From an uncultured Myxococcaceae bacterium (GTDB taxonomy: Bacteria > Myxococcota_A > UBA9160), in contig CAZDHU010000035.1 in NCBI GenBank assembly GCA_964505355.1, positions 2,002-66,001 on the forward strand: a DNA stretch of 64,000 nucleotides. Direction: 5' to 3'. The first letter of the stretch is position 1, and every line of letters begins with the position of its first letter. Below, piece by piece: positions 2 to 17,235 of this stretch. The translations under genes and the position numbers were made by a program. Under the pieces are notes generated by a model. It did no database searches and was not told the origin of the DNA. It worked only from the letters and a program-made list of their open reading frames with translations.

Positions 2-970
2 TCCGCGTCGGGATTCGGGACGCCGACCGTCTGGCTGGTCCACGGGGGTGGACTCCCGAGCAAGCAGATGCAGTACCACGACGTCAACGGCGACGGTCGC
101 GCGGACGCGATCTTCTTCGTGGCCGGGGCCGGCTCGGTCTACGTCAGCCTCGCACAAACCGGCTCGTTCGCAGCACCGGCACTCTGGGCGCAGTTCCCGT
201 CGTCGTCGCCGGATCAAGTGCACTACCCCGACGTCAACGGGGACGGACGCGCCGACGTCGCGTGGTTCGATACGTCGACCACGCCGGGTTACGTCCACGT
301 CGGTGTGTCGACGGGCACCGGCTTCACGACCCCGACCATGTGGGCGGGCCACGGTGGCGCGGTCGCCGCAGCCAAGCTGCAGTTCGGCGACGCCAACGGC
401 GACGGCATGGACGACCTGCTCTACTTCGACTCGGGAGGAAACAGCCTGGTCTGGGTGAACCTCTCGGTGGGCACCGGCTACAGCCCGCCGACCGCGTGGC
501 TCCAGCACGGCCCGACCCCGCCGCAGGCCATGAAGTATGCGGACGTGAACGGAGACGGAGCGGTCGATGCCCTGCTCTTCGCGGCAACGTTCAGCGACAT
601 CGTGTACGCCAGCCCGTCGACGGGAACCTCGTTCACGCCGGCCGCCAACTGGCTCGAGTTCGCGTACTCGACGGTGGACATGCTGCAATACGCCGACGTG
701 AACGGAGACGGACTCGCGGATGCGCTCTACTTCGATCTCCTGCGCGGCGGTGCGGTGCAGGTGGGAACCTCGCTCGGCCTCGACTTCGCAACACCGGCGA
801 CCTGGACCACCATCACCGCACCGGTAACCAGCGGCGACGACGTCGCATGGACGGACTTCGACGGAGACGGCCGGGCGGACATGGCGGTGCACCGAAGCGA
901 CAACAAGATCGAGTTGCGCCGATCAACGGGTTCCGCTCTGACGGCCGCAACGATCTGGCCGGCGCCGTAG
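2..970 (+). CDS. FG-GAP/VCBS-type repeat protein (beta-propeller), 5'-truncated by window edge
   Basis: Six to seven tandem ~45-aa units with the Ca-binding-like signature D(V/A)NGDG(R/L/M)AD followed by S/T-G-x-GF-x-x-P-x-x-W. The frame stays open upstream of the listed ATG(68) to nt 2, and the upstream residues (SASGFGTPTVW) continue the repeat, so the gene starts outside the window. Stop TAG 968-970. Confidence 0.8.
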   Translation, partial: SASGFGTPTVWLVHGGGLPSKQMQYHDVNGDGRADAIFFVAGAGSVYVSLAQTGSFAAPALWAQFPSSSPDQVHYPDVNGDGRADVAWFDTSTTPGYVHVGVSTGTGFTTPTMWAGHGGAVAAAKLQFGDANGDGMDDLLYFDSGGNSLVWVNLSVGTGYSPPTAWLQHGPTPPQAMKYADVNGDGAVDALLFAATFSDIVYASPSTGTSFTPAANWLEFAYSTVDMLQYADVNGDGLADALYFDLLRGGAVQVGTSLGLDFATPATWTTITAPVTSGDDVAWTDFDGDGRADMAVHRSDNKIELRRSTGSALTAATIWPAP

Positions 971-1202: not shown

Positions 1203-1946
1203 TCACTTCCGCAGTCGTGCGACCCAGCAGCGTGTGGTGTACGGGACGGAGATCTTTCCGGATGGCGGCAGCACGCGCCGAATCGCGTCGACGACGCGGT
1301 CGAACGCCTCACCGGCCTGGCGCTGAAGCGTCGCGTGAGACCGCCACGCGTCGATGTAGTCCTCGACGCGTGTGGGCGCGACCGATCGTGCTTCGACGTG
1401 ATCGACGGCTTCGAAGAGGCCGGAGTCGTCGATCACTGCCGTCTGGTCTTCGCGTCGAACACCGTGTCCATAGTCGGGCACGTGAGCGGTGATCGTCGCC
1501 TCGACTTCCTTCTGCAGCGGATCGTCGAGATCCCGGTGGTTCCACAGGCACCCAAACCAGCCCCGCACGACGGCGATTCGTGCGACCTCGCGCAGCGCGG
1601 CAGCCCGATCGACCACGTTGAACGAGGAGCCGAAAAAGACCATCGCGTAGCCATGGTCCGGAAGACCCGTCTGCTCGCCCGTGCCCTCGCTCCAGCACAC
1701 GTCCGCACCGCGCGTGTTTTCGATCCCGATCGCGCGCATCGCGTCATTCGGCTCGACGGCGTGCACGCGCAGGCCGCGCGCCACGAGCGGACGCGTCAGC
1801 TTCGCGGTTCCCGCACCGATGTCGGCGACCCGATCTCCGCGCGACAGCCCGGCGATTTCGACCAGCCGATCGATCGCGTTCGGCGCGTATTCGGCGCGCC
1901 GGTCGTAGTAGGGCGCGAGTGCGGTGTAGTTCCAGGTCGTCTGCAT
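1203..1946 (-). CDS. Class I SAM-dependent methyltransferase (candidate phosphoramidate O-methyltransferase, Cj1419/Cj1420-like role)
   Basis: 247 aa from ATG 1944-1946 (MQTTWNY...). SAM motif I VADIGAGTAKLT. The longer 641-aa track ORF upstream is Arg/Ala-rich read-through. Last gene of the train containing the phosphoramidate cassette. Confidence 0.85.
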   Translation of the reverse strand: MQTTWNYTALAPYYDRRAEYAPNAIDRLVEIAGLSRGDRVADIGAGTAKLTRPLVARGLRVHAVEPNDAMRAIGIENTRGADVCWSEGTGEQTGLPDHGYAMVFFGSSFNVVDRAAALREVARIAVVRGWFGCLWNHRDLDDPLQKEVEATITAHVPDYGHGVRREDQTAVIDDSGLFEAVDHVEARSVAPTRVEDYIDAWRSHATLQRQAGEAFDRVVDAIRRVLPPSGKISVPYTTRCWVARLRK

Positions 1947-2032
1947 GTCTTCTCCGCTTCGAACTCGTGCGCAGCCTACGCCAGAGAGACCACAGGCGCA
2001 GGTCGTCGTTCCGCCACGTCGTGCTTCATCGC

Positions 2033-3187
2033 TCAGGCAATCGGATTCACCCCCCATCTCGGATGTCGCACCGTTCGCTCGTAGAGCCATTCGATCTCGT
2101 CGGGTTCGAGCAGCATTCGACAGACGGCCGCGAAGAACGAATGCAACGCGGGCACCTCGGCGGACGTTTCGGCCACGGCGTAGGCCCAGTTCTCCGCGAT
2201 TCGATGCTGCCGAACGGGCGTGCACCGCGTGTCGAGCCGGCGTTCGATGCGACCAGACGGCTCCTGCCAGAGCATCGGAGCGCCCGCGGCGTCGTGCGGT
2301 CGCACGAAAACGCGTCGCTGGACGAGCGTCCGCAGGTCGACGATGGGACGTCTCGCGGCGCGCTGGAGCCAGCCGTCGAGGTGACTCTCGTCGGCCTCGT
2401 ATCCCATCCAGCGCAGGAACGCGCGCATCAGCGCTCCGTCGTAGTGGGCGAGTTCGACCGGATCGTTCCGCTCCTTCCACTCGAAAGACCGTCCCCGATG
2501 AATCGCCTGCATCGACCCGCCCGGCATGCGACGGGCGAGCATGTCTCGCGCGCGCTCGGTCGACGAGCTCGCAATCGCCCGGCGGATGCACGCGTCGTCC
2601 CGATGGCGCGAACCGAGGAAGGCGAGAACGCCGGCGAGCGTCTCCTCGGGCCGTTCTTTCAGATCCTCGAAGCGCACGAAGCGGATGGGCCGAACCCGAC
2701 TCGCGTGCAACCAGCGCAGGTGAAACAGCAGATACGTCTTCACGGCATCCAGCCAGAACAGGCCGGGAAAGTGATCCGGCCAGTCCGTGCGCCAGTCGAG
2801 AAACTCGGGCAACTCGCCCGGATACCAGCCGTTCATCTTCCAGCGGCGATGCAAAGAGAAGATCGCGTCTCTCGGGTCTCGCACCACGACGACCACCGGA
2901 CACGCGGGATCGATGTCGAAACGAACGCGATGCTCCCAGAAGAGCTCGATCTCCGGGATGAATCGGTGTCGCTCGCGTTCGAGCAAGATGGGAAGGTGGT
3001 GGACGATGTGTTTCCGAGCCGCCTCGCCGACGCGATACTCCCCGTCGCCGACGTCTTCCCAGTGGTTCTTCTCGTAGAGCAGAGACGTCGTTCGATGCCC
3101 GAGGGCGAGCATCGCGTTGACGAGCCATGCCAGTCCGCAGGCGAACGGAGCCGAGGTCAGAAAGGCCACGCGTCGAACGCGCGTCAT
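2033..3187 (-). CDS. Sulfotransferase-fold protein with divergent 5'-phosphosulfate-binding loop (candidate phosphoramidate transferase)
   Basis: 384 aa from ATG 3185-3187, overlapping the upstream stop as ATGA. 3'-phosphate-binding-like motif VVVVRDPRDAIFSLHRR and the FVRFEDLKERPEETLAGVLAFLG segment are typical of sulfotransferases. The N-terminal P-loop position reads SAPFACGLAWL instead of PKxGTTWL, so the Lys is absent. Confidence 0.75.
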   Translation of the reverse strand: MTRVRRVAFLTSAPFACGLAWLVNAMLALGHRTTSLLYEKNHWEDVGDGEYRVGEAARKHIVHHLPILLERERHRFIPEIELFWEHRVRFDIDPACPVVVVVRDPRDAIFSLHRRWKMNGWYPGELPEFLDWRTDWPDHFPGLFWLDAVKTYLLFHLRWLHASRVRPIRFVRFEDLKERPEETLAGVLAFLGSRHRDDACIRRAIASSSTERARDMLARRMPGGSMQAIHRGRSFEWKERNDPVELAHYDGALMRAFLRWMGYEADESHLDGWLQRAARRPIVDLRTLVQRRVFVRPHDAAGAPMLWQEPSGRIERRLDTRCTPVRQHRIAENWAYAVAETSAEVPALHSFFAAVCRMLLEPDEIEWLYERTVRHPRWGVNPIA

Positions 3188-3906
3188 CGCCAGTGCTCGA
3201 CGTCGCTCTCGCTGTCGAACTCCCACCAGGCTTCGTCGGTGTCGATGGTGTCGATCCGTTCTCCGGCCTCGATCATCGTCTGCAGAAGGCTCGTCACGTC
3301 GATGTCGCGAAAGCGCTCGGACGAGAGGGTCGAGAGCGTCGCTTCGATGCGACTCCACCCGTCCGGCGTGATCGCGAGCAGCCCCATGAACTGCCCCTCG
3401 ATCTCGTGCATGCCCGAAGGGCGGCGACCGATCTCGACCAGCCTGCCCGCGGCGTCGCGGCGAAAGGTCTCCGCGTCGGCGAGGGGATCGGCGAATCGCC
3501 GTTCCCAGATCTCGCGCCAGCGCGTGTTGTTCGCGACGACGATGTCCCCGGGTGCATCGGCCAACCTCAGGATCGTCTTTGCACCGAACAGAATGTCCGA
3601 ATAACACACGATGCCGGGCGCCTCGATCATCCAGGGTCGGGCCTGCCACAGCGAGTAGACCATGTTGGTGGTCTCCCACTGCGCATTGTGAAACGTCCGC
3701 CGGAACGCTGGCCCCTCGAGCAGATCGGCCCGATACCCGGTGACGATCGCGAGCTCGCGGATTCCGCCACCGCGCAGGGCATCGATCGCGGATTCGAGAA
3801 GGGGGCGCCCGTCGACGGACAGCAGACACTTCGGGCGCTCTTCGGTGAGCCCCTTCATGCGGCGCCCTCGACCGGCGGCGAGGATCACGGCGCGCCGGGT
3901 GCTCAC
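3184..3906 (-). CDS. MobA/LicC-like nucleotidyltransferase (Cj1416-like CTP:phosphoglutamine cytidylyltransferase candidate)
   Basis: 240 aa from GTG 3904-3906 (GTGA overlap with the upstream stop). N-terminal AVILAAGRGRRM nucleotide-binding loop. Sits between the amidotransferase and the sulfotransferase-fold gene. Confidence 0.75.
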   Translation of the reverse strand: MSTRRAVILAAGRGRRMKGLTEERPKCLLSVDGRPLLESAIDALRGGGIRELAIVTGYRADLLEGPAFRRTFHNAQWETTNMVYSLWQARPWMIEAPGIVCYSDILFGAKTILRLADAPGDIVVANNTRWREIWERRFADPLADAETFRRDAAGRLVEIGRRPSGMHEIEGQFMGLLAITPDGWSRIEATLSTLSSERFRDIDVTSLLQTMIEAGERIDTIDTDEAWWEFDSESDVEHWR

Positions 3907-4517
3907 GCGATCCCAAAATGGACGCGCAGCATCTCGGTGTCCGCGGAGGTCGGAACACGCTCCCGCTCGGGATGCCACATCACCCCCTGCACCCGCCGGT
4001 CCTTCGCTCTCACCCACTCGACGTGACCTTCGACCGTCCGTCCGAGCACTTCCCACTTCGCGGGTTCTCTTCGAATCGCAAACTGGTGATAACTGTTCAC
4101 TTCGCGCATCGGCCGGCCCGTCTCGTCGAGCAGTGCGTGCCGTGTCTTCACGTGGCCATCCACCCGCTCCAGTTCTCCTCCGAATCGCTCGCACAGGAGC
4201 TGAGCCCCGCGACAGATGCCGAACACCGGGATCGCGCGCTGAAGCGCGTCGTCCAGCAACCGCGCCTCCGTTTCGTCTCGCTCGGATCGATCGCCCCCGA
4301 GCGTGCAGAGATCGTTTCCCCCGCTCAGCAAGAGACCGTCCGGTCGCAACCGGTCGATCGCCCCGAAGTCGAGACTCGGCTGATTCGGAATCAGAATCGG
4401 CGCCGCGCCGATGTCGCACAGCAGCCGCGAGAGCCGCTGATCGAGTGCGTCTCTCACCTCGCCGATGTCGCCGTGCACGTCGACCCGACAGGAGACCAGA
4501 ATCAGCGGTCGCGTCAT
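3903..4517 (-). CDS. Class I glutamine amidotransferase / peptidase C26 family (Cj1417-like gamma-glutamyl-CDP-amidate hydrolase candidate)
   Basis: 204 aa. Nucleophile elbow PVFGICRGAQLL and His-Glu motif GVMWHPE. ATGA overlap with the upstream gene at 4514-4517. Confidence 0.85.
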   Translation of the reverse strand: MTRPLILVSCRVDVHGDIGEVRDALDQRLSRLLCDIGAAPILIPNQPSLDFGAIDRLRPDGLLLSGGNDLCTLGGDRSERDETEARLLDDALQRAIPVFGICRGAQLLCERFGGELERVDGHVKTRHALLDETGRPMREVNSYHQFAIRREPAKWEVLGRTVEGHVEWVRAKDRRVQGVMWHPERERVPTSADTEMLRVHFGIA

Positions 4518-6829
4518 CGAAGAATCTTGACCTGCCGGTTGCAGCCATCGATCGACAATCGCCGGGCACGAGACCAGGCCCCGTAGTTCGTCTCGCCCGC
4601 ACCGACCACGGCCGGCAGTTTCATCTCGGCTGCTCGGATGGCCATGTGCGAGTTGACGCCGCCGTACATCGTGACGAATCCCGCGATCCGTCGGGTGAAG
4701 ATCCAGTCGAAACCGGGATCTGCGTTCTCGATGAACACGATTTTCCCCCGCAGGTCGTCGCGCTCCGAATCGAGCACGGCGACGTCGGCCTCGACCGAGC
4801 CGAGGGTGACGAAGTTCGGCTCGGTTTCCAGAACGTGGAAGGTCCAGACGTCTTCCGGCGATACGATCAGGCTCGGAAGAACGAGTGCCCGGGTGACTTC
4901 GTGCGCCCGGCGTCCCTGTTCGATCGAACGCGCCATCGCAGCGGCCGGACTCTCGCAGGAACCGAACAACCTCTGGACGGCCCGAACGTCGAGGTGGCTG
5001 GAATCGTCGAGATCGAATCCGTGTTCTCGGCCGAGTCGCCCGATCTCGACCAGCGCGTCGCTGACGTTCCGCGTGAACAGGAATTTCGCGTACTCACGCC
5101 CTTCGATCGCACACTTCAGGAACTCGAACAGTCCGAGCACGTCGAGATCGAGCCGATGTGCGCGCAGCTCCGTCTGGATCGTCGTGTACTGCTCGATCGA
5201 GAGACGGAACGGGGTCGCCGCCGGAATCGGACTCTTTCGTTCCCAGTCGAAGTATCGATCGGGGTCCTCGTCGTACCGGGGAGACAGGATGTCGTAGGTG
5301 CCCGGCCGAAGATGTCCGTAGACGGCGAGAAATGCCTCGCGAGGAAGTCTCGCGTGATCCCGCGCCATCCGCGTACTCACGGTGTCGAGCGACCCCATGA
5401 ACTCGGCGCACTCGCGATCGGTGAGAATTCCGGACGACACCATCGACTTCAACATCTGAACGGCGATGAATCCGGCGCGGGCGAGTCCTGCGAACGGGAG
5501 CGTCCCGTACCGCTTGCAATCTTCGAGCAGCCAGTAGATGCGCTCGATTCGATTCATCGAACTCGACGCCAGCGCCCGATGCCGCTCTTCGAGAATCGAG
5601 AGCCGTTCGAGATCCTTCTTCCAGAGTCCGGTCTCCGGCGCGACGATGCGGACCGTCAAGGCACGGAGGCTCTCGACGATCCGCGTGATTTCGTCCGAGG
5701 TGAACCCGAATCCGCGCAGCCGTTCGATCTCTTTTTCGAGCTCGAAGTGATGACAGGAGAAAGCGATCTCGAACTCGACCTTGTCGTGGAGCTGTGGCGA
5801 GCTCGCCAGCCGGTCGAGGTAGTGCTCGACGAGTTTGTTCGCGAGCGCTTCGGGGACGTCGGCGGGAACGAACGAATTGAAATCGACGCGCACGTCGACG
5901 TACGGGCATCCGTGAAGGCTTTGGATCAGCGGCTGGCTTCGCAGATTTCGGTAGCCGTAGTTGTCGCGCTGGTACGCCCAGGTGCTGTCCGTGACGAGTT
6001 CCGTGTACAGCGAGAGCGCGAGCGGGCGAGGGCGCACGCCGACGATCTCCGCCGGATTCCAGTCGGGCATGATGCCGAAGAGGGTTCGAGATCCGAGCAG
6101 GAAGGGTTTCGGCTCCATCCATTGCGTGACCTTGTCGTGAATCTCGACGAGGCGCGCCCGCAGGGCCTCGGTTTCGACGCGACACTCCCGAGCGAGTACA
6201 AGCGGACGCACCTGCAGCAAATGAAGTCGATGGGCATCGTCGATGGCGAACTCGACGTCGAGCCGGTCGGAGCCAAACCGGGCTTCCAGCTCGTCGAGCA
6301 GCGCGTGAAGTTCGGGAAATTCCGCGCGCGCGTGCGACGGCGGCGACGAAAACGAGATCGCGGTCCTCGTCGCGCGACCGAGCCCCGAAGTCACGCCGTC
6401 GGTCGCGCCCGAATCGTCGTAGTTGATCACGCGGTAGGGCGATCCCGTGGAGGGATCGCGCGTGAAGGCCACCCCCGAACGAATCACGCGCCGGACCATC
6501 GGCTGCACGAAAAGGTGTTCGTCGTCGTCGAGCGGGTCGTACCGTTCGAAGACGGCATCGATCGCCGTTCGCAATCGATTCGCGTCCTGCACGTTCGGAA
6601 TCGAGAGGTATCGCCCGGCAAGAGAGCGCTCGATGCCATCCTCTCCGCTCGCACTGCTCCGGACGATCAGCGGTTCGGCGAATCCGAGCGTTCGTTCGAC
6701 GCGCCGGAGACACGATTCGGGATCACGCCGCCACTCGCCGAACGAAAGCAGACAGGAGGCGGGGATCACCGCGTGTTGCAGCGTTTCGCGAAGCGATTCG
6801 AGCGTCGTCGCCTTCGTTCCCGGCTTCAT
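4514..6829 (-). CDS. PEP-utilising-enzyme family kinase: ATP-grasp/PPDK_N domain plus phosphohistidine swivel domain (Cj1418-like L-glutamine kinase candidate)
   Basis: 771 aa from ATG 6827-6829 (ATGA overlap). N-terminal PPDK_N-type motif IVRSSASGEDG..SLAGRY. C-terminal mobile-domain motif GGVNSHMAIRAAEMKLPAVVG. No PEP/pyruvate TIM-barrel domain recognisable. Confidence 0.85.
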   Translation of the reverse strand: MKPGTKATTLESLRETLQHAVIPASCLLSFGEWRRDPESCLRRVERTLGFAEPLIVRSSASGEDGIERSLAGRYLSIPNVQDANRLRTAIDAVFERYDPLDDDEHLFVQPMVRRVIRSGVAFTRDPSTGSPYRVINYDDSGATDGVTSGLGRATRTAISFSSPPSHARAEFPELHALLDELEARFGSDRLDVEFAIDDAHRLHLLQVRPLVLARECRVETEALRARLVEIHDKVTQWMEPKPFLLGSRTLFGIMPDWNPAEIVGVRPRPLALSLYTELVTDSTWAYQRDNYGYRNLRSQPLIQSLHGCPYVDVRVDFNSFVPADVPEALANKLVEHYLDRLASSPQLHDKVEFEIAFSCHHFELEKEIERLRGFGFTSDEITRIVESLRALTVRIVAPETGLWKKDLERLSILEERHRALASSSMNRIERIYWLLEDCKRYGTLPFAGLARAGFIAVQMLKSMVSSGILTDRECAEFMGSLDTVSTRMARDHARLPREAFLAVYGHLRPGTYDILSPRYDEDPDRYFDWERKSPIPAATPFRLSIEQYTTIQTELRAHRLDLDVLGLFEFLKCAIEGREYAKFLFTRNVSDALVEIGRLGREHGFDLDDSSHLDVRAVQRLFGSCESPAAAMARSIEQGRRAHEVTRALVLPSLIVSPEDVWTFHVLETEPNFVTLGSVEADVAVLDSERDDLRGKIVFIENADPGFDWIFTRRIAGFVTMYGGVNSHMAIRAAEMKLPAVVGAGETNYGAWSRARRLSIDGCNRQVKILR

Positions 6830-7365
6830 GCGATCGCTCCGAGCAGCGTTCCCCGAATCGTCGCCATCGCCTGCTCCCGCATGCCGGCGATCGGCAACCC
6901 GGATTCGCCGAGGTCGAACACGAGATCGGGATGCGCCGGCTCTTCCGGCTCCAGATCCACGCCGACCACCGGACCCGTACCCGGCTTCGCAGCGTAGAGG
7001 TCGTGCTGGTTCCGGGCTCGCAGCAGGGCGTTCGGAGCCCGCAGGTAGATCTCGAGATAGCGCGGAACGCGTCTGCGATTTCGTTCTCGAACGGACTCGA
7101 ACATCGAGACCGTACAGCAAATCACGTTCACGCCCTGGTCGGTGAGCAGCGTGCAAAGGCGCGAGTAGAACTGCGCGCAGCGGAGTCGTCCGTCACGGTC
7201 GTATCCAAAGACGCCACCGGCGACTTCGCGCAGCTCGTCGCCGTCGAGCAAGACGGCGGGCGTACCGGAGGCCACGAGCGAATCACGCAGACTTCGTCCC
7301 AGCGTCGTCTTTCCGGAACCCGCGAGTCCGGTGACCCAGACCAGAAATCCTTCTCTCGCCTCCAT
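6826..7365 (-). CDS. Adenylylsulfate-kinase-fold kinase (Cj1415-like cytidine diphosphoramidate 3'-kinase candidate)
   Basis: 179 aa from ATG 7363-7365. The track start at 7401 is a TTG. P-loop VTGLAGSGKTTLG and LLDGDELR as in APS kinases. No ATP sulfurylase gene nearby. Confidence 0.8.
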   Translation of the reverse strand: MEAREGFLVWVTGLAGSGKTTLGRSLRDSLVASGTPAVLLDGDELREVAGGVFGYDRDGRLRCAQFYSRLCTLLTDQGVNVICCTVSMFESVRERNRRRVPRYLEIYLRAPNALLRARNQHDLYAAKPGTGPVVGVDLEPEEPAHPDLVFDLGESGLPIAGMREQAMATIRGTLLGAIA

Positions 7366-7397
7366 TCCGAGCACGTTCACCGTCCTCGCACATCGAG

Positions 7398-9017
7398 TCA
7401 AGCGCCCCCCGCGCTCTCCAGCCCGGCGAGCTCGACGGCATCCGCCGCTGCAGGCTTCGGCCCCGTCTCGCCGGCGAGTTCGGATTTCGGTGGTGAATCG
7501 CGCTCGGCCGGCGGTGCGTTCGGCGTGACGCCCTCCGTGTCAGGCGTTTCGATCGCCTGTCCCTCGTCCCGGGCGGCGAGATCGACCAGCCGCTCGCGAA
7601 GCGACGACTCCGTCTCTCCGGTCAAGACCAGTGCGCCGAGCGCGTGATCTCCGATTCGATCGAAACGCAGATCGATGGGGCCCGTCTCGTGATGCACGGC
7701 GAACCATCGTTCGTCACCGCCACGAAGCCAGCGATGGAGATGGTCGGGAACTCGCGTGGTCCGGCGCAGCAGGTTGTAGCGCCCGACCACGTCGACGAGG
7801 TCGATTCGGGTCTCCATCCGCCACGGCTTCGCGATCGTCGATGCAACGTGCTCGAGCCTCTGCTCTTCGCGCTGCTCGCGATCGGCCCGGGTTCGACGAC
7901 GCCCGAGCCCGCGCAGCCACCCCCTCCGCGCCCCGGCCGCCAGCGAAGCGTCGAGTTCGAAGCGCGTCTTCGCGGAAGCCGCGGCGCGGTCGTCGCGAAT
8001 CACGCGCGCGACGAGGCTGCGCGAGATCGGACCGCGCACGGCGTGGAGACCTCCATCGAAGGCCCAGATTTCGTATCCATCCTTCCGCGCCTCGATCCGG
8101 CGCGGTTCGGCGGCGTCACCGGCTGCGAGCGTCGGCCCCCAGGACGCCGGCACCGAACGCCCGCGCTCGCGACGCAGCCACGAGTCGAACGCGCGCGCGC
8201 GCGCCGACAGAAACTCCCGAAGCCAGCGTTCGAAATCGGCTGGACAGCGGACGGAGTCCCCGACGAAGGCGGGTTCATCGAGACGAAGCAGGGCGGTATC
8301 GACGTCCGTGCGCACGCCGAGGAAGGAGAACACGCCGTCGATGGCGCTTCGCGGATCGGTCTCGACGTCTTCCAGAAAACCGACGTGAATCTGCGAAGAA
8401 TGAAACACCGACGAGAGCCGTTCGAGCAGTCCGAGCGGGTCGACGGCCGTGAGCATCACGTCCGAGAGCGCGGCCGCGCAGAGCGCGCGTTCCTCGAGAT
8501 TTCCAATCGAACAGTCGGCATCCGCAAAGGGAGCTTCGCGCCAGCGACAGGCATGACGAATCAGCGACCACATGTGGTCGACGGGCTCGCGCAACCAGAC
8601 GATCCAACGAACGTCCGGTCGGAGTTCTCGGATGGTGCGCAACGCGGTGCGAGGAAGTCCGGCATTCGGCGTCGCATCGCCGCGACACGTCGAACTCACT
8701 CCCGCGAAGTGATCGAGATACCGGTCGACGCCGTGTTCGCGCCAGCCCGTGTCGAAGTAGTGCAGTTCTTTTTCTCGAGGCAGATGGACGTCCGGATGAC
8801 GGCGCAGAACGTCGGCCAGCCAGGTGGTGCCGGTCTTACCGGGAGACGCGAAGAGAAATTCGGGAAATAACGATTCGCGTCCACGCGGGATCCGTCCGAT
8901 CCGTTGCGCGTATCGAGCCCAGAGCCAGTGCTCGTTCGGGTACAGGGGCTCGGGCTCGCCTCGAGTCGAGGACGTCCCGGGATCGGCATCGTCGTATTCG
9001 GACGCCCCGCGCTTCAT
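7398..9017 (-). CDS. Canonical sulfotransferase domain fused to a ~250-aa C-terminal domain of unknown function
   Basis: 539 aa from ATG 9015-9017 (MKRGASEY...). 5'-PSB loop SPGKTGTTWL and 3'-PB motif WLREPVDHMWSL. The C-terminal half carries two copies of a Y-(N/E)-hydrophobic ... aromatic-aromatic-(A/G)-(V/L) module that also occurs in the adjacent radical SAM protein. Confidence 0.8.
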   Translation of the reverse strand: MKRGASEYDDADPGTSSTRGEPEPLYPNEHWLWARYAQRIGRIPRGRESLFPEFLFASPGKTGTTWLADVLRRHPDVHLPREKELHYFDTGWREHGVDRYLDHFAGVSSTCRGDATPNAGLPRTALRTIRELRPDVRWIVWLREPVDHMWSLIRHACRWREAPFADADCSIGNLEERALCAAALSDVMLTAVDPLGLLERLSSVFHSSQIHVGFLEDVETDPRSAIDGVFSFLGVRTDVDTALLRLDEPAFVGDSVRCPADFERWLREFLSARARAFDSWLRRERGRSVPASWGPTLAAGDAAEPRRIEARKDGYEIWAFDGGLHAVRGPISRSLVARVIRDDRAAASAKTRFELDASLAAGARRGWLRGLGRRRTRADREQREEQRLEHVASTIAKPWRMETRIDLVDVVGRYNLLRRTTRVPDHLHRWLRGGDERWFAVHHETGPIDLRFDRIGDHALGALVLTGETESSLRERLVDLAARDEGQAIETPDTEGVTPNAPPAERDSPPKSELAGETGPKPAAADAVELAGLESAGGA

Positions 9018-12136: not shown

Positions 12137-12589
12137 CTAGAGTGCGACGTCGACCAGAGCAGATCCCCGCAACGCATCGACGCCGTCGAGAATCTCGTGA
12201 ACCTGCCAGCTCGCTGCACGATCGGACTTCGCTGCGATCTCGGCTGCGATCGCCGTTTCTCCAAAGGCCGGGATCACGATCACCGGCTTCCCGTGCTTGC
12301 GAGCCAGTTCGAACTCGAGCTCGAGCCACTTCCGCGAACTCGCCTGCGCCCACACGCTGGCGAGCGCGATCACCGCATGAACCGGAACGATCTGCGCTTC
12401 GAGCCATCGTCGCACGAACGTTCCTCCGTCCGCGCTGTTCGCACTCACCGCCGGGTCGTGCCAGGGCACACTGAAGTTCCGCCACTGCAGACCGGGCTCC
12501 GCATCGAACAGCGCGACGAGCCGATTCCAGTCGTCGTGATAGCGCCATGCATGCGTGATGAAGAGGTCGTATCGCGGTCGCGCCGTCAC
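12137..12589 (-). CDS. TIR-like domain protein (DUF1863/MTH538-type, ThsB-like fold)
   Basis: 150 aa from GTG 12587-12589 with a strong GGAGG SD 5-6 nt upstream. N-terminal YDLFITHAW, then SRKWLELEFELARKHGKPVIVI, a typical TIR-like layout. Embedded between the YfhO-like and radical SAM genes with 34- and 51-nt gaps. Confidence 0.75.
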   Translation of the reverse strand: MTARPRYDLFITHAWRYHDDWNRLVALFDAEPGLQWRNFSVPWHDPAVSANSADGGTFVRRWLEAQIVPVHAVIALASVWAQASSRKWLELEFELARKHGKPVIVIPAFGETAIAAEIAAKSDRAASWQVHEILDGVDALRGSALVDVAL

Positions 12590-12623: not shown

Positions 12624-15320
12624 TCACACTAGCTCACGCGACTTCGCCTGGCGTCGCCGCGAATCGACGAATGCGAACGCCCCGAGCGCCGCACAGGTGG
12701 CCAGCAGTCCGGCTCCCGACAGGCGCTTGCCTCGCGCCAGCGCCGGCGGCGAATACCACAGCTCGAGTCGTCGGGCTCCGGCCGGAATCCCGATCGCCAT
12801 GAATGCGAAATCGGCCCGCATCACCGCTTGCTCCGCACCGTCGACCGACGCGTGCCACCCCGGGTCGAACACGTCACCGAAGAACACGATCGTCGGAGCG
12901 ACGCCGCCGACGGGAATCACGATCCGGTCGCTCGTGAGCTCGTCGAAGGCGAGATCGATCGCTCGGCCGCTCGTCGCAGCGACACCGCCCGGGGGGTCTC
13001 GATCGAGAACGAGCCGGCGCAATGGATCGAAGTCCAAATCCGTCAGCCTCCGGAGCGCGTCTTCGTCCCCGGGAATCACTTCGAAGTCCGAGCAGGCGAC
13101 GAATCGGGAGAGCGCGCCCGGGCGGCGCTGAACCTGCCCGCGCGAGACTCCCTCGAACCCCGCGCCGAGCAGATCGAGCAGGCGCGGATCGTTCACCTCG
13201 GGCGTCATCGCGCCCGGGCCGAAGGGTGGATTCGGCTCGAACGCGGACACGAGTCGCGACAGGCGTTCGCCTCGGAGCGAGTTCACGCCACCCATCGAGC
13301 GGATCCCGTGAACCGTGAAGACGTTTCCCTGAAACTCTTCGGCGGCGATCCCGAGCGCGACGTGGGGTCGGTTGACGCGCCATCGTGCGAGATCGGAGGC
13401 GGACAGGTCGAAGGTCGCCGTCTCTCCGCGAGAGCGATCGATCTTACCGGGACGCCAGAACGGTTCGGTGATCACGTGCTGATACTCGCGGTTCGCCGGC
13501 GCGAGGTCGGCGAACAGCACGAGCCCGAGCGTCACGACGAACGCTTCGGAGCCGATTCTCCCCGTACGCAGGGCGCCGAGCGCGGGCACCAGAACCGCCG
13601 TGACGAGCAGCAGCCGGCCGACTCCGAGCAGCGCCAGCAGCGCCGCATTCGGCAGCGTCGGATGCGCCCCTTCCGGTAAGGGGATCACCATCACCACCAT
13701 CACCAGCCCGAGCGCCAGCCAGCGGAGCCTCCCTGCGATCCGCTCTCTTCCGGACGAAGCGTCGAGCAGAGATCGCCAGAGCAGAAGGATCGCAGCGATG
13801 CTCGTCTGGATCAGCACGAACGAGCAAACGAAGAGATCGTCTCTCCAGCCGGCGAACCATGCGACGATCCCGACCACGACGGCGTCGATGCCCACGGCGC
13901 ACCAGACCGCGAGCGGACGCCCGAGCAGCGAACTCACCGACGACGGACGCACGAAGACCAGCGCCGCCGCCGCGAGCGCGAGCAGCACGACGCATGCGAC
14001 GGGATGGATCGCCTCGGGCCTCAGATAGAACCACGGAACGGCGCTCGCACCGGCAGCGAGCAGCGCGCATGCCGCGAGAACGCGCACGGGGTCTCCGAAG
14101 GCGCCGGGCTCGTCGATCGCCGTCCGGAGCGCGGACGCGAACGCTCCCAGCAGCGCCACCGGAACCAGAAGACGCGGAATGATCGCATGGATGTAGGGAA
14201 AGAAGAGCGTCCAGATCAAATCGGCAAACGGGCGCACGGACAGAAACCAGACCGTCGCCGCGACGAAGAACGCAGGCCAGAACGGACGCATCCCGCGGCG
14301 CCGGCGCGCGAGTGCGAGCAGGACGAGCAGCATCGTCGCCGCCCCGGCGTACGGATGGCCGTCGATCTGATGATGCTGCACGGGTTCCCACCAGACGTAG
14401 TGCTGCAACAACCGCTTTGCGGTCTCGATCTGAATGCCGAGCGCCTCGGGAACCAGCGCTGTGACGCCGTACAACGGATCGTTCATGTGGCCGCCGAACG
14501 CGTGGTGAAACGAATCGGTGAAAACGCGATCTCCGCCGTGCAGCGCACCCGCGATCGGAAGCAGCCGAATCATCGCGACCAGCAGAGCGCAGACGAACGC
14601 GGTCCCGGCGATCCACGCCAGTGCGTTCCGGGGCCAGCGTCCGAGCTCGGCAGGGTTCAGTCGGTAGACGACGAGAATCCCGAGGGCGAGCAGGATTCCC
14701 GCGCCGTACACCACGTTCCCGGTCGTCAGTACGATCAGAATCGAACACCAGACGGCGAGAAACGTTCGCCAGAGGGCGCGGCGATCGATCGTCCAGATCG
14801 CGGCCAGCGCGCCGTAGAGCGCCACGTGGAGCGTCAGACACGCGTAGGTGGTGACCGCGAAGAACGCGTTGGTCCCGATCTGGGCGGTCAGCGCCGCGAG
14901 AAGTGCGACCGGGCGACTGCCGAACTCTTCGCGAAGAAACGCCCATGCGAATCGTCCGAGAAGCCACGTTTCGATCGCCACGCGGAGATGAAAGCCCCAC
15001 TTGAACCAGCCGCGCGGCAACAGGAAGAGCGGCCAGGATGCAGGCGAGTAGAGAAAATTGTGGGTGCTCCCGGAGAAATCGATTCCGCCGAGAAGCTGCG
15101 GATTCCACAGCCCCCATCCTCCGCGACGAAGCTCGGCGGCCGTGAACAGGTGATTGGGAAAGATCGCGAACCAGTTGTCGGTGCTCCCGACCAGCGCTTT
15201 TCCCTGAAGCAGCGGCGGGAGGTAGATCAGGCACGCCGTCGCGAGGAAGAACCACGTCGCGCTGCGATCGGGTCGCGCGAGCAGGCGCTCGCGAAGCCGG
15301 GAAGTGACGCCGGCCGTCAC
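12624..15320 (-). CDS. Large polytopic membrane protein, YfhO/GT-C-like glycosyltransferase
   Basis: 898 aa from GTG 15318-15320 (GTGA overlap with the gmhB stop). More than 12 predicted hydrophobic helices followed by a ~230-aa soluble C-terminal domain and a final TM segment. The N-terminal region resembles the YfhO family. The family call is by eye only. Confidence 0.65.
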   Translation of the reverse strand: MTAGVTSRLRERLLARPDRSATWFFLATACLIYLPPLLQGKALVGSTDNWFAIFPNHLFTAAELRRGGWGLWNPQLLGGIDFSGSTHNFLYSPASWPLFLLPRGWFKWGFHLRVAIETWLLGRFAWAFLREEFGSRPVALLAALTAQIGTNAFFAVTTYACLTLHVALYGALAAIWTIDRRALWRTFLAVWCSILIVLTTGNVVYGAGILLALGILVVYRLNPAELGRWPRNALAWIAGTAFVCALLVAMIRLLPIAGALHGGDRVFTDSFHHAFGGHMNDPLYGVTALVPEALGIQIETAKRLLQHYVWWEPVQHHQIDGHPYAGAATMLLVLLALARRRRGMRPFWPAFFVAATVWFLSVRPFADLIWTLFFPYIHAIIPRLLVPVALLGAFASALRTAIDEPGAFGDPVRVLAACALLAAGASAVPWFYLRPEAIHPVACVVLLALAAAALVFVRPSSVSSLLGRPLAVWCAVGIDAVVVGIVAWFAGWRDDLFVCSFVLIQTSIAAILLLWRSLLDASSGRERIAGRLRWLALGLVMVVMVIPLPEGAHPTLPNAALLALLGVGRLLLVTAVLVPALGALRTGRIGSEAFVVTLGLVLFADLAPANREYQHVITEPFWRPGKIDRSRGETATFDLSASDLARWRVNRPHVALGIAAEEFQGNVFTVHGIRSMGGVNSLRGERLSRLVSAFEPNPPFGPGAMTPEVNDPRLLDLLGAGFEGVSRGQVQRRPGALSRFVACSDFEVIPGDEDALRRLTDLDFDPLRRLVLDRDPPGGVAATSGRAIDLAFDELTSDRIVIPVGGVAPTIVFFGDVFDPGWHASVDGAEQAVMRADFAFMAIGIPAGARRLELWYSPPALARGKRLSGAGLLATCAALGAFAFVDSRRRQAKSRELV

Positions 15321-15925
15321 CGGAGCGCGGCCTCGGTGTCGACGATGGTCCGAACGGCATCGGCCAGATCGCGTGCCCGGAGCGTCGGCCGATGGGTCTC
15401 CGATCGTTCCGCCGGATGATCGGGGTCGACGAGGATCGTCCGGGTACCGGCGCGCGTTCCACATTCGACGTCGGTCGCGCGGTCACCGATCATCCAGCAG
15501 TACGAGAGTTCCAGTCCGAGATCGAGGGCCGCTCGGCACAGGAAATGGGGAGACGGCTTGCGACACTCGCAGACGCCACTCCACTCCGGCACGACCCCGT
15601 TCGGATGATGAAAGCAGTAGAAGCTCGCATCGAGTCCGATGCCCGCGGTCCCGAGTTCGTGCTCCAGTCGCTCGTGCACCGCCCGCAGCGACGCGAGCGA
15701 CGTCTTCCCCTTCGCGTGGCTCGGCTGGTTCGAGACGACGACGAGCTTCCAACCGTCACGCCGAAGCGCTGCGAGCGCCTCCTTCACCCCATCGTGGAGC
15801 ACGAGATCTCCGGGCTCGCGCGGCGATTCCCATTCGCGCGACGAGGCGTACCAGACGTTACGGTTCAGCACCCCGTCCCGATCGAGAAACACCGCGCGAC
15901 GTCGACTCAACGCACGGATTCCCAT
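15317..15925 (-). CDS. gmhB: D-glycero-D-manno-heptose 1,7-bisphosphate phosphatase (HAD-IIIA)
   Basis: 202 aa. HAD motif I FLDRDGVLN, motif II VVVSNQ, CxHxxxxxCxCRKP zinc-binding loop (CFHHP...CECRKP), and GDRATD. Confidence 0.85.
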   Translation of the reverse strand: MGIRALSRRRAVFLDRDGVLNRNVWYASSREWESPREPGDLVLHDGVKEALAALRRDGWKLVVVSNQPSHAKGKTSLASLRAVHERLEHELGTAGIGLDASFYCFHHPNGVVPEWSGVCECRKPSPHFLCRAALDLGLELSYCWMIGDRATDVECGTRAGTRTILVDPDHPAERSETHRPTLRARDLADAVRTIVDTEAALR

Positions 15926-17235
15926 TTCATCGCGTTCCGTCGAAGTCGCGGATGCGAGACGACGAGATGTGCGATCACCGATTGAAACGCTTCGGTGTGC
16001 GGCGTCACCGTTTCGGGATTCACCGTCGGAACGACGACACAGGCGTCCGCGAGTTTGGCCGTGGTTCCACCGTCACGGCCGACGATCCCCAGCACACGGG
16101 CACCGGCCGACCTCGCGAACTCGATCGCTTCCACGAGGTTGACGCTGATCCTCCGCTCGCGATCGCCGCCACCGACGGACAGCACGAGCACGGCGTCGCG
16201 TGACGAAATCCGGCTGGTTTCGAGCCAGCGCGAAAAGACTCCCTCCCAGCCCTCGTCGTTGACGCGCGCGGTCAGCTCCGAAACGTTGTCGGTCGGAGCG
16301 TAACTTTCGATCCCGGCGATCTTGCGAAAATCGTTGACGGCATGACTCGCGTTGGCCGCACTGCCTCCGACGCCGATCACGAACAGACGTCCTCCGGACG
16401 CACGCAGATCGACCAGACCATCGATCACGCGCTCGATCGCGAACACGTCGATCGCGTCGACGATCCGATGGACTTCGCTCAGGTACCGTCGCGTGTAGTC
16501 TCGTTCCGGTTCGGTCATGGCGCCCCCTCGGGTTCTCAATCGAGCATCGGTCTCGGCGAGCCCCTGCTCGGATCCGATCTCGAAGAATCGTTCGCGGGCT
16601 TCGAAACCGGCGAGCTGTCCCGCGGACGAGAGTCGTTCGTAGACGTCCGACAGGCCGAACGGCTCGCTGGCCGGCCAGTCGTCGAGTATCGAGGAGCGCA
16701 GCACGCCGAGCCCGAAGTCGATCCACTGCATCTCGGAACCCGGAGATCGCTTGGAGTAGCGAACCCGGGCGCCGTCGAAATCCGCGTTGCTTCGATCCCA
16801 GAGACCGTGGTTGTGGAGAACGGTCATCAGCGCCGGCTTTTGCGAAGCGTAGAACGCTTCGAGGACCGGCTCGACGTCGATTTCCAGCCAGGAGTCTCCA
16901 TAGACGACGACGAAGGGATCGCCGAGCAGGGGCCGTGCTCTGCGCAGGGCGCCGCCGGTGCCGAGCAGCACGTCGCCGTCGCGCGAGTACTCGACGTGCA
17001 GCCCGAACGCCGATCCGTCCCTCACGAACCGTTCGATCGCGTCGCCCAGATGACCGATACAGAGCACGACGTCACGAAACCCCTGGCGTGCGGCGAGACG
17101 AAGCTGGTGGGCGACGAAGGGCTCGCCCGCCACGGGAAGCAGCGCCTTCGGAACGTGGCGTGTCCGTTCGCCGTGCCTGCTCGCGAGTCCGCCGGCGAGG
17201 ATCGCGAGCGCGGGCAACGAAGACGCAGCGCTCAC
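15907..17235 (-). CDS. hddC-gmhA: Fusion protein: heptose-1-phosphate nucleotidyl(guanylyl)transferase (HddC-like) plus SIS-domain sedoheptulose-7-phosphate isomerase (GmhA-like)
   Basis: 442 aa from GTG 17233-17235 (GTGA overlap). N-terminal AILAGGLASR...KALLPV NTP-transferase domain. C-terminal SIS domain with FVIGVGGSAANASHAVNDF. There is no stop between the domains. An internal ATG at 16516-18 with a GAGGGGG SD could also give a stand-alone GmhA. Confidence 0.85.
   Translation of the reverse strand: MSAASSLPALAILAGGLASRHGERTRHVPKALLPVAGEPFVAHQLRLAARQGFRDVVLCIGHLGDAIERFVRDGSAFGLHVEYSRDGDVLLGTGGALRRARPLLGDPFVVVYGDSWLEIDVEPVLEAFYASQKPALMTVLHNHGLWDRSNADFDGARVRYSKRSPGSEMQWIDFGLGVLRSSILDDWPASEPFGLSDVYERLSSAGQLAGFEARERFFEIGSEQGLAETDARLRTRGGAMTEPERDYTRRYLSEVHRIVDAIDVFAIERVIDGLVDLRASGGRLFVIGVGGSAANASHAVNDFRKIAGIESYAPTDNVSELTARVNDEGWEGVFSRWLETSRISSRDAVLVLSVGGGDRERRISVNLVEAIEFARSAGARVLGIVGRDGGTTAKLADACVVVPTVNPETVTPHTEAFQSVIAHLVVSHPRLRRNAMKWESVR

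Follow-up and report, generated by a model that had tools for sequence, protein, structure and literature searches.

A sulfotransferase-fold protein as candidate phosphoramidate transferase in a glycan locus of an uncultured Myxococcaceae bacterium

Introduction

Which protein transfers the phosphoramidate group to the glycan in a locus that carries the O-methyl phosphoramidate (MeOPN) cassette of Campylobacter jejuni with sulfotransferase-like genes on both of its sides? The question is raised by a 64,000-nucleotide stretch of DNA from an uncultured Myxococcaceae bacterium (contig CAZDHU010000035.1, positions 2,002 to 66,001; hereafter the window), in which orthologues of Cj1415-Cj1419 lie between or adjacent to two genes, StA (2033-3187) and StB (7398-9017), whose products both pass Pfam sulfotransferase thresholds. 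In C. jejuni the transfer step is assigned by genetics only, by knockouts of two large, phase-variable proteins (Cj1421 and Cj1422); it has never been reconstituted, and 3'-phospho-cytidine diphosphate (CDP)-amidate is regarded as the 'likely donor' (PMC11800397, PMC12409886).

The original prediction, made from the window's letters, held that a sulfotransferase fold could move P(O)(NH2)O- instead of sulfate, as a solution non-homologous to Cj1421/Cj1422. For StA the first part is the best reading of our results: fold, motifs and gene neighbourhood make it likely that StA is a phosphoramidate transferase using a cytidine donor that resembles 3'-phosphoadenosine 5'-phosphosulfate (PAPS). That StA is the functional counterpart of Cj1421/Cj1422 is the best explanation of its sequence context. 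For StB, which lacks comparative support, sulfation stands as an alternative, and the claim of non-homology is probably wrong.

Results and discussion

StA has a sulfotransferase fold with an altered 5'-loop

StA is a protein of 384 amino acids (N-terminus MTRVRRVAFLTSAPFACGLAWLVN; it contains VVVVVRDPRDAIFSLHRRW), for which an exact-sequence database look-up returned no record. It scores 34.9 bits against Pfam Sulfotransfer_1 (cut-off 22), the match being limited to residues 93-211. An AlphaFold2 model computed with 15 homologues in the alignment has a mean predicted local distance difference test score (pLDDT) of 83 and a predicted template modelling score (pTM) of 0.86. When the model was compared with the PDB by Foldseek, the top 50 matches listed were all PAPS sulfotransferases, the first 30 at probability 1.00, and included LGS1, Teg12/14, StaL and SULT1A1, 1C, 2A, 2B and 7A1, while a profile of the StA family matched SULT2A1 at E 3e-15. 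The fold, on which the original prediction depended, is that of a sulfotransferase because the Pfam match, the model with its structural neighbours and the profile match to SULT2A1 all lead to it.

In the profile alignment to SULT2A1, RDPRDAIFS of StA falls on the 3'-phosphate motif, KG...EWK (HRGRSFEWK) on the RKGxxGDWK site, HLP on the catalytic SHLP and FACGvaWL on PKSGTNWL. The 3'-phosphate-binding residues are thus kept and the loop Lys is lost, as had been noticed from the sequence. In the 5'-phosphosulfate loop (PFACGLAW), where the A of FACG stands opposite the K of PKSG in the HMMER alignment, the usual combination of Lys/Arg with Thr/Ser is lacking, for the Lys and both sulfate-contacting hydroxyl residues are replaced, and Lys or Arg is absent from the 5'-loop throughout the narrow StA clade.

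Conservation was assessed over 101 cluster representatives of the broader StA family, most of them 20-35% identical to the window protein. G18, R103, S111 and R115 are invariant, G232 is invariant or nearly so, and position 86 (of WEHR) is His in 91 of the 101 representatives. Roughly half of the broader family has Trp in place of H64 (of HLP), whereas H86 is conserved, and H64 was dropped as a candidate catalytic base. About a quarter of the broader family has an Arg two positions ahead of the canonical Lys site. Among 150 representatives, fusions joined tandem sulfotransferase domains or linked StA-like domains to tetratricopeptide repeats, a short-chain dehydrogenase/reductase, an epimerase or a TagF-like domain; a fusion with the cytidylyltransferase, which would have been a Rosetta-stone link, was sought in the same set and none was found.

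The loss of the canonical catalytic Lys would also be expected if StA were a catalytically dead relic, or a nucleotide-binding or scaffolding subunit with no transferase activity. We consider this very improbable, as the positions expected in an active site are strongly conserved (R103, S111, R115 and G18 without exception, H86 in 91% of 101 divergent clusters), as the family is widely distributed and large, with 278 clusters at E <= 1e-30, and as Cj1421 and Cj1422, whose transferase function is proven genetically, likewise have no Lys or Arg at this loop position.

Relatives of StA accompany the phosphoramidate cassette

Relatives of StA stand beside cassette genes in about eleven independent contigs. 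Starting from StA homologues, the cassette was found adjacent in six loci (L001, L002, L084, L086, L092 and L094), and it also adjoins StA relatives in genome assemblies of different lineages (L072, L077, L080 and L053); cassette genes were adjacent wherever the contig was long enough. L001 combines the kinase, glutamine kinase, glutamine amidotransferase (GATase), a CysQ-like gene, the nucleotidyltransferase, three sulfotransferase-like genes and a methyltransferase. L002 is composed of the kinase, glutamine kinase, a GATase::nucleotidyltransferase fusion, StA, a methyltransferase and a B12-dependent radical S-adenosylmethionine (SAM) gene. Such minimal clusters (L002, L092) hold no transferase candidate other than the sulfotransferase-like gene.

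A survey was also made with the glutamine kinase as its starting point; it took in 80 genome loci of many phyla and, with other fetched loci added, 89 were counted. StA-family genes occur in Burkholderiaceae, Magnetococcales, Bdellovibrionales and other assemblies of this survey. A sulfotransferase-like gene was present in 58 of the 89 loci, at a median distance of 49 nt from a core cassette gene (52 of 71 such genes within 300 nt), and a regular-expression search for the motifs found sulfotransferase-like genes nowhere else in the surveyed loci. Cj1421/Cj1422-type genes, whose absence the original prediction proposed to survey, were found neither in the window nor in any of the 88 non-Campylobacter loci.

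Two further families contribute to this count. Proteins of the L001b family (410-650 aa, loop GRSGS, an RDP..S motif) occur in 19 loci, including those of the Firmicutes Cohnella and Lachnospiraceae; several members exceed the Sulfotransfer_3 cut-off, and hhalign shows the family to be homologous to StA (E 2e-9, probability 96%). The clu5 family (~360 aa, no Pfam match) is found in 27 loci, mostly of Acidobacteriota (e.g. L024:14460-15545 and L054:14553-15512), and with its motifs IGLFGTGRxY, YRHPLDSLL..W and LRLEDFMIDP looks like a third sulfotransferase-like family beside the cassette. Both cassette-linked families keep an Arg in the loop, and the idea that loss of the loop Lys is the hallmark of phosphoramidate donors was given up for this reason. 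L001, L009 and L042 each have two or three sulfotransferase-like genes.

In nine loci, including L001 (4450-5244), L088 (12902-13699) and L092 (4854-5654), a CysQ-type (inositol-monophosphatase) gene lies within or beside the cassette; the window has none. A bisphosphate nucleotidase at this place is consistent with cytidine 3',5'-bisphosphate (pCp) as a by-product of the transfer.

A trio of genes is kept where the phosphorus chemistry changes

Among the StA-like proteins found, P0014 and P0015 (loci L089:8931-15150 and L090:10001-15267) are the most distant. Their genes lie next to a Cj1415-like kinase (35-37% identical to that of the window) and a Cj1419-like methyltransferase (47-49%), together with a phosphoenolpyruvate (PEP) mutase::cytidylyltransferase fusion and a phosphonopyruvate decarboxylase; neither has a glutamine kinase in its vicinity. 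Since kinase, methyltransferase and sulfotransferase-fold gene travel together while the phosphorus chemistry changes, a role of the fold in using PAPS is hard to reconcile with these loci, and the fold appears to go with the kinase that adds the 3'-phosphate and not with sulfate. This suggests a general logic of 3'-phospho-cytidine donors. In the open-access literature we found no paper that ties MeOPN or phosphonate tailoring to sulfotransferase-fold proteins.

Is StA an ordinary PAPS sulfotransferase?

The same fold could mean that StA is a conventional PAPS-dependent enzyme, the glycan being both sulfated and phosphoramidated and the phosphoramidate being moved by another, unrecognised protein. 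StA passes Sulfotransfer_1, and every one of its structural neighbours uses PAPS. No genes of PAPS synthesis or sulfate activation were found within the 64-kb window, yet many bacteria make PAPS as a housekeeping metabolite, so the lack of such genes at the locus says little against sulfation.

Several results of the survey also weigh against a transferase role of StA-type proteins. In 31 of the 89 cassette loci there is no recognisable sulfotransferase-like gene, which, at about one third of the loci, means that another type of transferase must exist somewhere; several of these loci are on contigs that are short, which does not apply to the Pseudomonas flagellar islands or to L088, both real exceptions. 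The Pseudomonas cassettes are located in the flagellar gene region (L051, L055, L069, L074, L076 and L081); matches to FlgI, FlgK or flagellin confirm this for L069, L055 and L076, and in L051 homologous open reading frames (ORFs) cluster. As they have no recognisable sulfotransferase-like gene, these cassettes imply flagellin glycans of the phosphoramidate type and yet another type of transferase. L088 is highly syntenic with the window and is devoid of both StA and StB; beside its cassette it carries a TagF-like CDP-glycerol-type transferase gene (Glyphos_transf, 15323-16861), a class that could in principle transfer phosphoramidate from a CDP-linked donor. On two short contigs with StA relatives (L091 and L093) no cassette genes were seen.

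Against PAPS use by StA, the loop residues that contact sulfate (the Lys and two Thr) are all replaced, FACGLAW standing for PKSGTNW in the HMMER alignment. Over unrelated lineages relatives of StA follow the cassette, the kinase of the Cj1415 type and the methyltransferase of the Cj1419 type, even where phosphonate genes have taken the place of the glutamine-kinase genes, and the minimal clusters offer no other candidate. Taken together, we regard an ordinary PAPS sulfotransferase as unlikely, and phosphoramidate transfer as the preferred function of StA.

Proposed route to the decorated glycan

By orthology to the enzymology of C. jejuni, the glutamine kinase would phosphorylate the amide nitrogen of glutamine, the cytidylyltransferase would produce CDP-glutamine, the amidotransferase-type hydrolase would release cytidine diphosphoramidate, and the kinase resembling adenosine 5'-phosphosulfate (APS) kinase would phosphorylate its 3'-OH, thereby generating a look-alike of PAPS. 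We propose that this 3'-phospho-cytidine donor is held in the 3'-phosphate site of StA (R103, S111, R115 and G232), and that StA moves the terminal P(O)(NH2)O- to a sugar hydroxyl while cytidine 3',5'-bisphosphate leaves. H86 (WEHR) is the likely general base, H64 being the residue that aligns with the catalytic His of the SULT enzymes. The product would finally be O-methylated by the Cj1419-like methyltransferase, for which methylation of the transferred phosphoramidate is the presumed role.

Cj1421 and Cj1422 probably share a distant ancestor with StA

No Campylobacter locus was among the genome loci retrieved with the glutamine kinase. Cj1421 and Cj1422 were recovered instead by means of a primer that flanks the poly-G tract (PMC8437040 supplement), which matched one metagenome contig (L083) twice. 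The two ORFs encode 625 and 612 aa and are neighboured by Cj1423-1425-like and Cj1419/1420-like genes; against the protein database they matched only Campylobacter entries named 'DUF2972 domain-containing protein / putative sugar transferase', and they score 245-247 bits for DUF2972 (PF11186), a domain with no match in StA or StB. Both genes contain G tracts. Over L083:2895-6662 the first ~240 residues of Cj1422 and Cj1421 are identical, the poly-G tract included; AlphaFold renders this region as low-confidence helices, and the acceptor-specific parts begin only beyond residue 240. Between 1203 and 9017 of the window, a search for a phase-variation tract found no run of at least 7 G/C or at least 8 A/T.

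A hidden Markov model (HMM) built from 25 members of the Cj1421/Cj1422 family gave no match in the window or the 88 other, non-Campylobacter loci, the family being confined, among the loci counted, to the Campylobacter locus. In the examined loci outside Campylobacter the transferase must therefore be something else.

The invariant residues of the Cj1421/Cj1422 core include the Gly of an SGHAAM loop and the R-D-P of LVRDPIERLK, and in Cj1421 and Cj1422 too the canonical loop position has neither Lys nor Arg. By hhalign, residues 13-196 of StA align collinearly with residues 253-436 of the Cj1421/Cj1422 profile (164 columns, E 0.014, probability 3%), an E-value comparable to that of the StA versus StB control (E 0.0038). 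The model of a Cj1421-type protein is confident over residues 240-604, and its top PDB matches in Foldseek are the sulfotransferase domain of NDST1 (probability 0.99, E 0.027), 1NST, 2-OST and SULT1C2, followed by P-loop kinases, all with weak E-values (>= 0.027). The Cj1421/Cj1422 profile found no match in the PDB by sequence. An 'EHR' shared with StA near the N-terminus of Cj1421 was discarded as a coincidence, for it lies in a low-confidence region of the model. The core motifs, the collinear hhalign alignment and the Foldseek list headed by sulfotransferases make a non-homologous solution unlikely, and StA and Cj1421/Cj1422 probably share a very distant ancestry within one fold, as far as profiles and models can tell.

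StB is a locus-specific gene with intact sulfotransferase motifs

StB is a protein of 539 aa (it contains FLFASPGKTGTTWLADVL) that scores 30.2 bits for Sulfotransfer_1 (cut-off 22) and 32.7 for Sulfotransfer_3 (cut-off 27). The domain spans approximately residues 50-241 and is followed by a C-terminal extension of ~300 aa without any match. The best PDB matches are 3RNL (E 3e-9), the sulfotransferase domain of NDST1 (E 5e-7) and 3-OST. The motifs are intact: the canonical 5'-loop noticed earlier, PGKTGTTWL, is present in the translation, and LREPVDHMWS aligns to 3RNL and NDST1.

These features fit an additional, locus-specific decorating enzyme, either a phosphoramidate transferase for a second site or an ordinary PAPS sulfotransferase; its gene context favours neither donor. 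A second transferase acting at another acceptor position, as with Cj1421 and Cj1422 in C. jejuni, is conceivable though somewhat doubtful. StB belongs to the same operon, ~35 nt upstream of the Cj1415-like kinase; the cassettes of L001, L009 and L042 show that more than one sulfotransferase-like gene may be present, and the basic loop residue kept by L001b and clu5 makes a canonical loop compatible with such a role. Against it, searches with StB over the other fetched loci L001-L091 gave no homologue, the closest relative of the window cassette (with a kinase 76% identical) has a tRNA synthetase gene at the position of StB, and the best matches of StB are genuine PAPS enzymes, all PAPS motifs being intact.

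A portable module and its significance

We tentatively extend the proposal to a portable module, in which a Cj1415-like kinase, a sulfotransferase-fold protein and a Cj1419-like methyltransferase would 3'-phosphorylate cytidine-linked phosphorus groups and transfer them to glycans. It would handle phosphoramidates together with glutamine kinase, hydrolase and cytidylyltransferase, and phosphonates together with a PEP mutase::cytidylyltransferase and phosphonopyruvate decarboxylase. At least four very divergent sulfotransferase-fold families (StA-like, L001b, clu5 and DUF2972/Cj1421-22) would then be transferases of phosphorus groups, and many 'sulfotransferase' genes would be misannotated; we hold this wider view with less confidence than the function proposed for StA itself.

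Should StA be a phosphoramidate transferase, the StA-type would provide a small, single-domain, Pfam-recognisable protein for biochemistry and structural work, and would explain why the pathway spends a 3'-phosphorylation on mimicking PAPS. It would also supply a rule by which phosphoramidate-decorated (possibly also phosphonate-decorated) glycans can be found in thousands of non-Campylobacter genomes with a glutamine kinase, and would expose a systematic misannotation as 'sulfotransferase' in such loci.

Layout of the locus

ORFs were taken from stop to stop and scored by HMMs; simple gene callers were dropped, as they chose antisense ORFs in this high-GC DNA. The features are listed in Table 1. 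Along the minus strand, from 5' to 3', the genes are StB, APS-kinase-like kinase, glutamine kinase, amidotransferase, nucleotidyltransferase, StA and SAM methyltransferase.

Table 1 Features of the cassette and its immediate neighbours in the window.
Feature	Position	Strand	Basis
SAM methyltransferase, Cj1419 orthologue	1203..1946 (ATG 1946-1944)	-	Pfam Methyltransf_11/25
StA, sulfotransferase-fold protein, candidate phosphoramidate transferase	2033..3187	-	Sulfotransfer_1 34.9 bits, model, synteny
Cj1416-like cytidylyltransferase (CTP:phosphoglutamine; MobA-type)	3184..3930 (start codon approximate)	-	Pfam NTP_transf_3 58.6 bits
Cj1417-like class-I glutamine amidotransferase (putative gamma-glutamyl-CDP-amidate hydrolase)	3903..4517	-	Pfam Peptidase_C26/GATase
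Cj1418-like L-glutamine kinase	4514..6832	-	NF004508 919 bits (cut-off 501)
Cj1415-like APS-kinase-fold kinase (putative cytidine diphosphoramidate 3'-kinase)	6826..7365	-	Pfam APS_kinase 84.9; NF004041 141.5 (cut-off 127)
StB, canonical carbohydrate-type sulfotransferase domain	7398..9017	-	Pfam Sulfotransfer_1 and Sulfotransfer_3
B12-binding radical SAM protein, 1026 aa	9029..12109	-	Pfam Radical_SAM and B12-binding

The ATG of StA (3187-3185) overlaps the TGA of the upstream nucleotidyltransferase (3186-3184) as ATGA, the junction described in the original prediction, and 86 nt separate StA from the Cj1419 orthologue downstream of it. The most likely start of the Cj1415-like kinase is 7365 (ATG 7365-7363), about 35 nt past the StB stop. 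The glutamine kinase has more than 6859 homologues, some of which carry the JGI name glutamine kinase. The best NCBIfam match of the amidotransferase is NF045546, at 95.6 bits under its cut-off of 250; the position of the gene within the cassette is conserved in other loci. The cytidylyltransferase keeps its place, which in the window is the interval between GATase and StA, in L001, L084 and L088; in L002 and L092 it occurs as a fusion with the GATase. The methyltransferase shares 43% identity with Cj1419 (E 2e-72) and 30% with Cj1420, and 75 of the 89 loci have a homologue. The host glycan locus extends over ~45 kb, with heptose-pathway genes, a uridine diphosphate (UDP)-glucose dehydrogenase, large GT2 proteins, an ABC-2 exporter and two B12 radical SAM genes. 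A complete O-methyl phosphoramidate module (1203-7365) inside a large glycan locus of the ABC-transporter type is the best explanation of this gene content.

The radical SAM protein upstream of StB shows weak similarity to PhpK-type P-methyltransferases; its homologues (47-49% identical) adjoin the cassette in L002, L086 and L087, of which L002 and L086 also have StA and the methyltransferase, and it may be a conserved accessory of StA-type modules. A small ThsB-type Toll/interleukin-1 receptor (TIR)-like ORF within the glycan locus (12137-12589, minus strand) has a counterpart close to an StA-like gene on the unrelated contig L093 (3231-3689); it has no evident part in making the glycan. A YfhO-like large membrane protein is encoded beside the cassette both in the window (12624-15464, minus strand) and in L088 (6789-9446), with 27% identity over ~900 aa. 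At the window edge a partial ORF (2-970, plus strand) that has no relation to the cassette shows FG-GAP/VCBS-like repeats and dockerin-like matches.

Comparison with known systems

StB resembles the heparan-sulfate-type sulfotransferases and the bacterial 3RNL in its intact PxxGTT loop and R.P.D..S motif, and differs from the heparan-sulfate-type enzymes in its unmatched C-terminal extension of ~300 aa and in the location of its gene directly upstream of the Cj1415-like kinase.

StA shares its fold with the PAPS sulfotransferases (SULT1/2, StaL, Teg12/14 and plant SOT; PF00685), with target-normalised template modelling (TM) scores of 0.5-0.6, and also the 3'-phosphate motifs, RDPRD..S corresponding to RNPKD..S and KG...EWK to RKGxxGDWK. 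In contrast to these enzymes, StA has PFACGLAW in place of PKSGTxW, the Lys and both Thr/Asn being gone, it has an extra C-terminal helical region of ~120 residues, and its gene stands in a phosphoramidate cassette and not among genes of sulfate activation.

In comparison with the MeOPN pathway of C. jejuni (Cj1415-Cj1420), the orthologues of Cj1415, Cj1416, Cj1418 and Cj1419 and the probable one of Cj1417 are all present and contiguous in the window, and the heptose pathway adjoins the cassette as it does in the C. jejuni capsule locus. The window, on the other hand, is from a high-GC organism, has a different transferase family, adds B12 radical SAM and TIR-like genes, and has no Cj1420 paralogue beside the cassette.

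Cj1421 and Cj1422 (DUF2972; PF11186 and PF28160) are much longer than StA (612-625 aa versus 384 aa), which has neither the DUF2972 domain, nor the 240-residue helical N-terminal region, nor a poly-G phase-variation tract; there is no significant sequence similarity between them (E 0.014), and Pfam Sulfotransfer_1 recognises StA and not Cj1421/Cj1422. The likenesses are those of position and of core architecture: all three proteins are genetically linked to Cj1415-Cj1419-type genes, StA fills the equivalent slot beside a Cj1419-like methyltransferase, and each has a P-loop-like strand-loop-helix without the canonical Lys/Arg, followed by a strand-RDP-helix motif.

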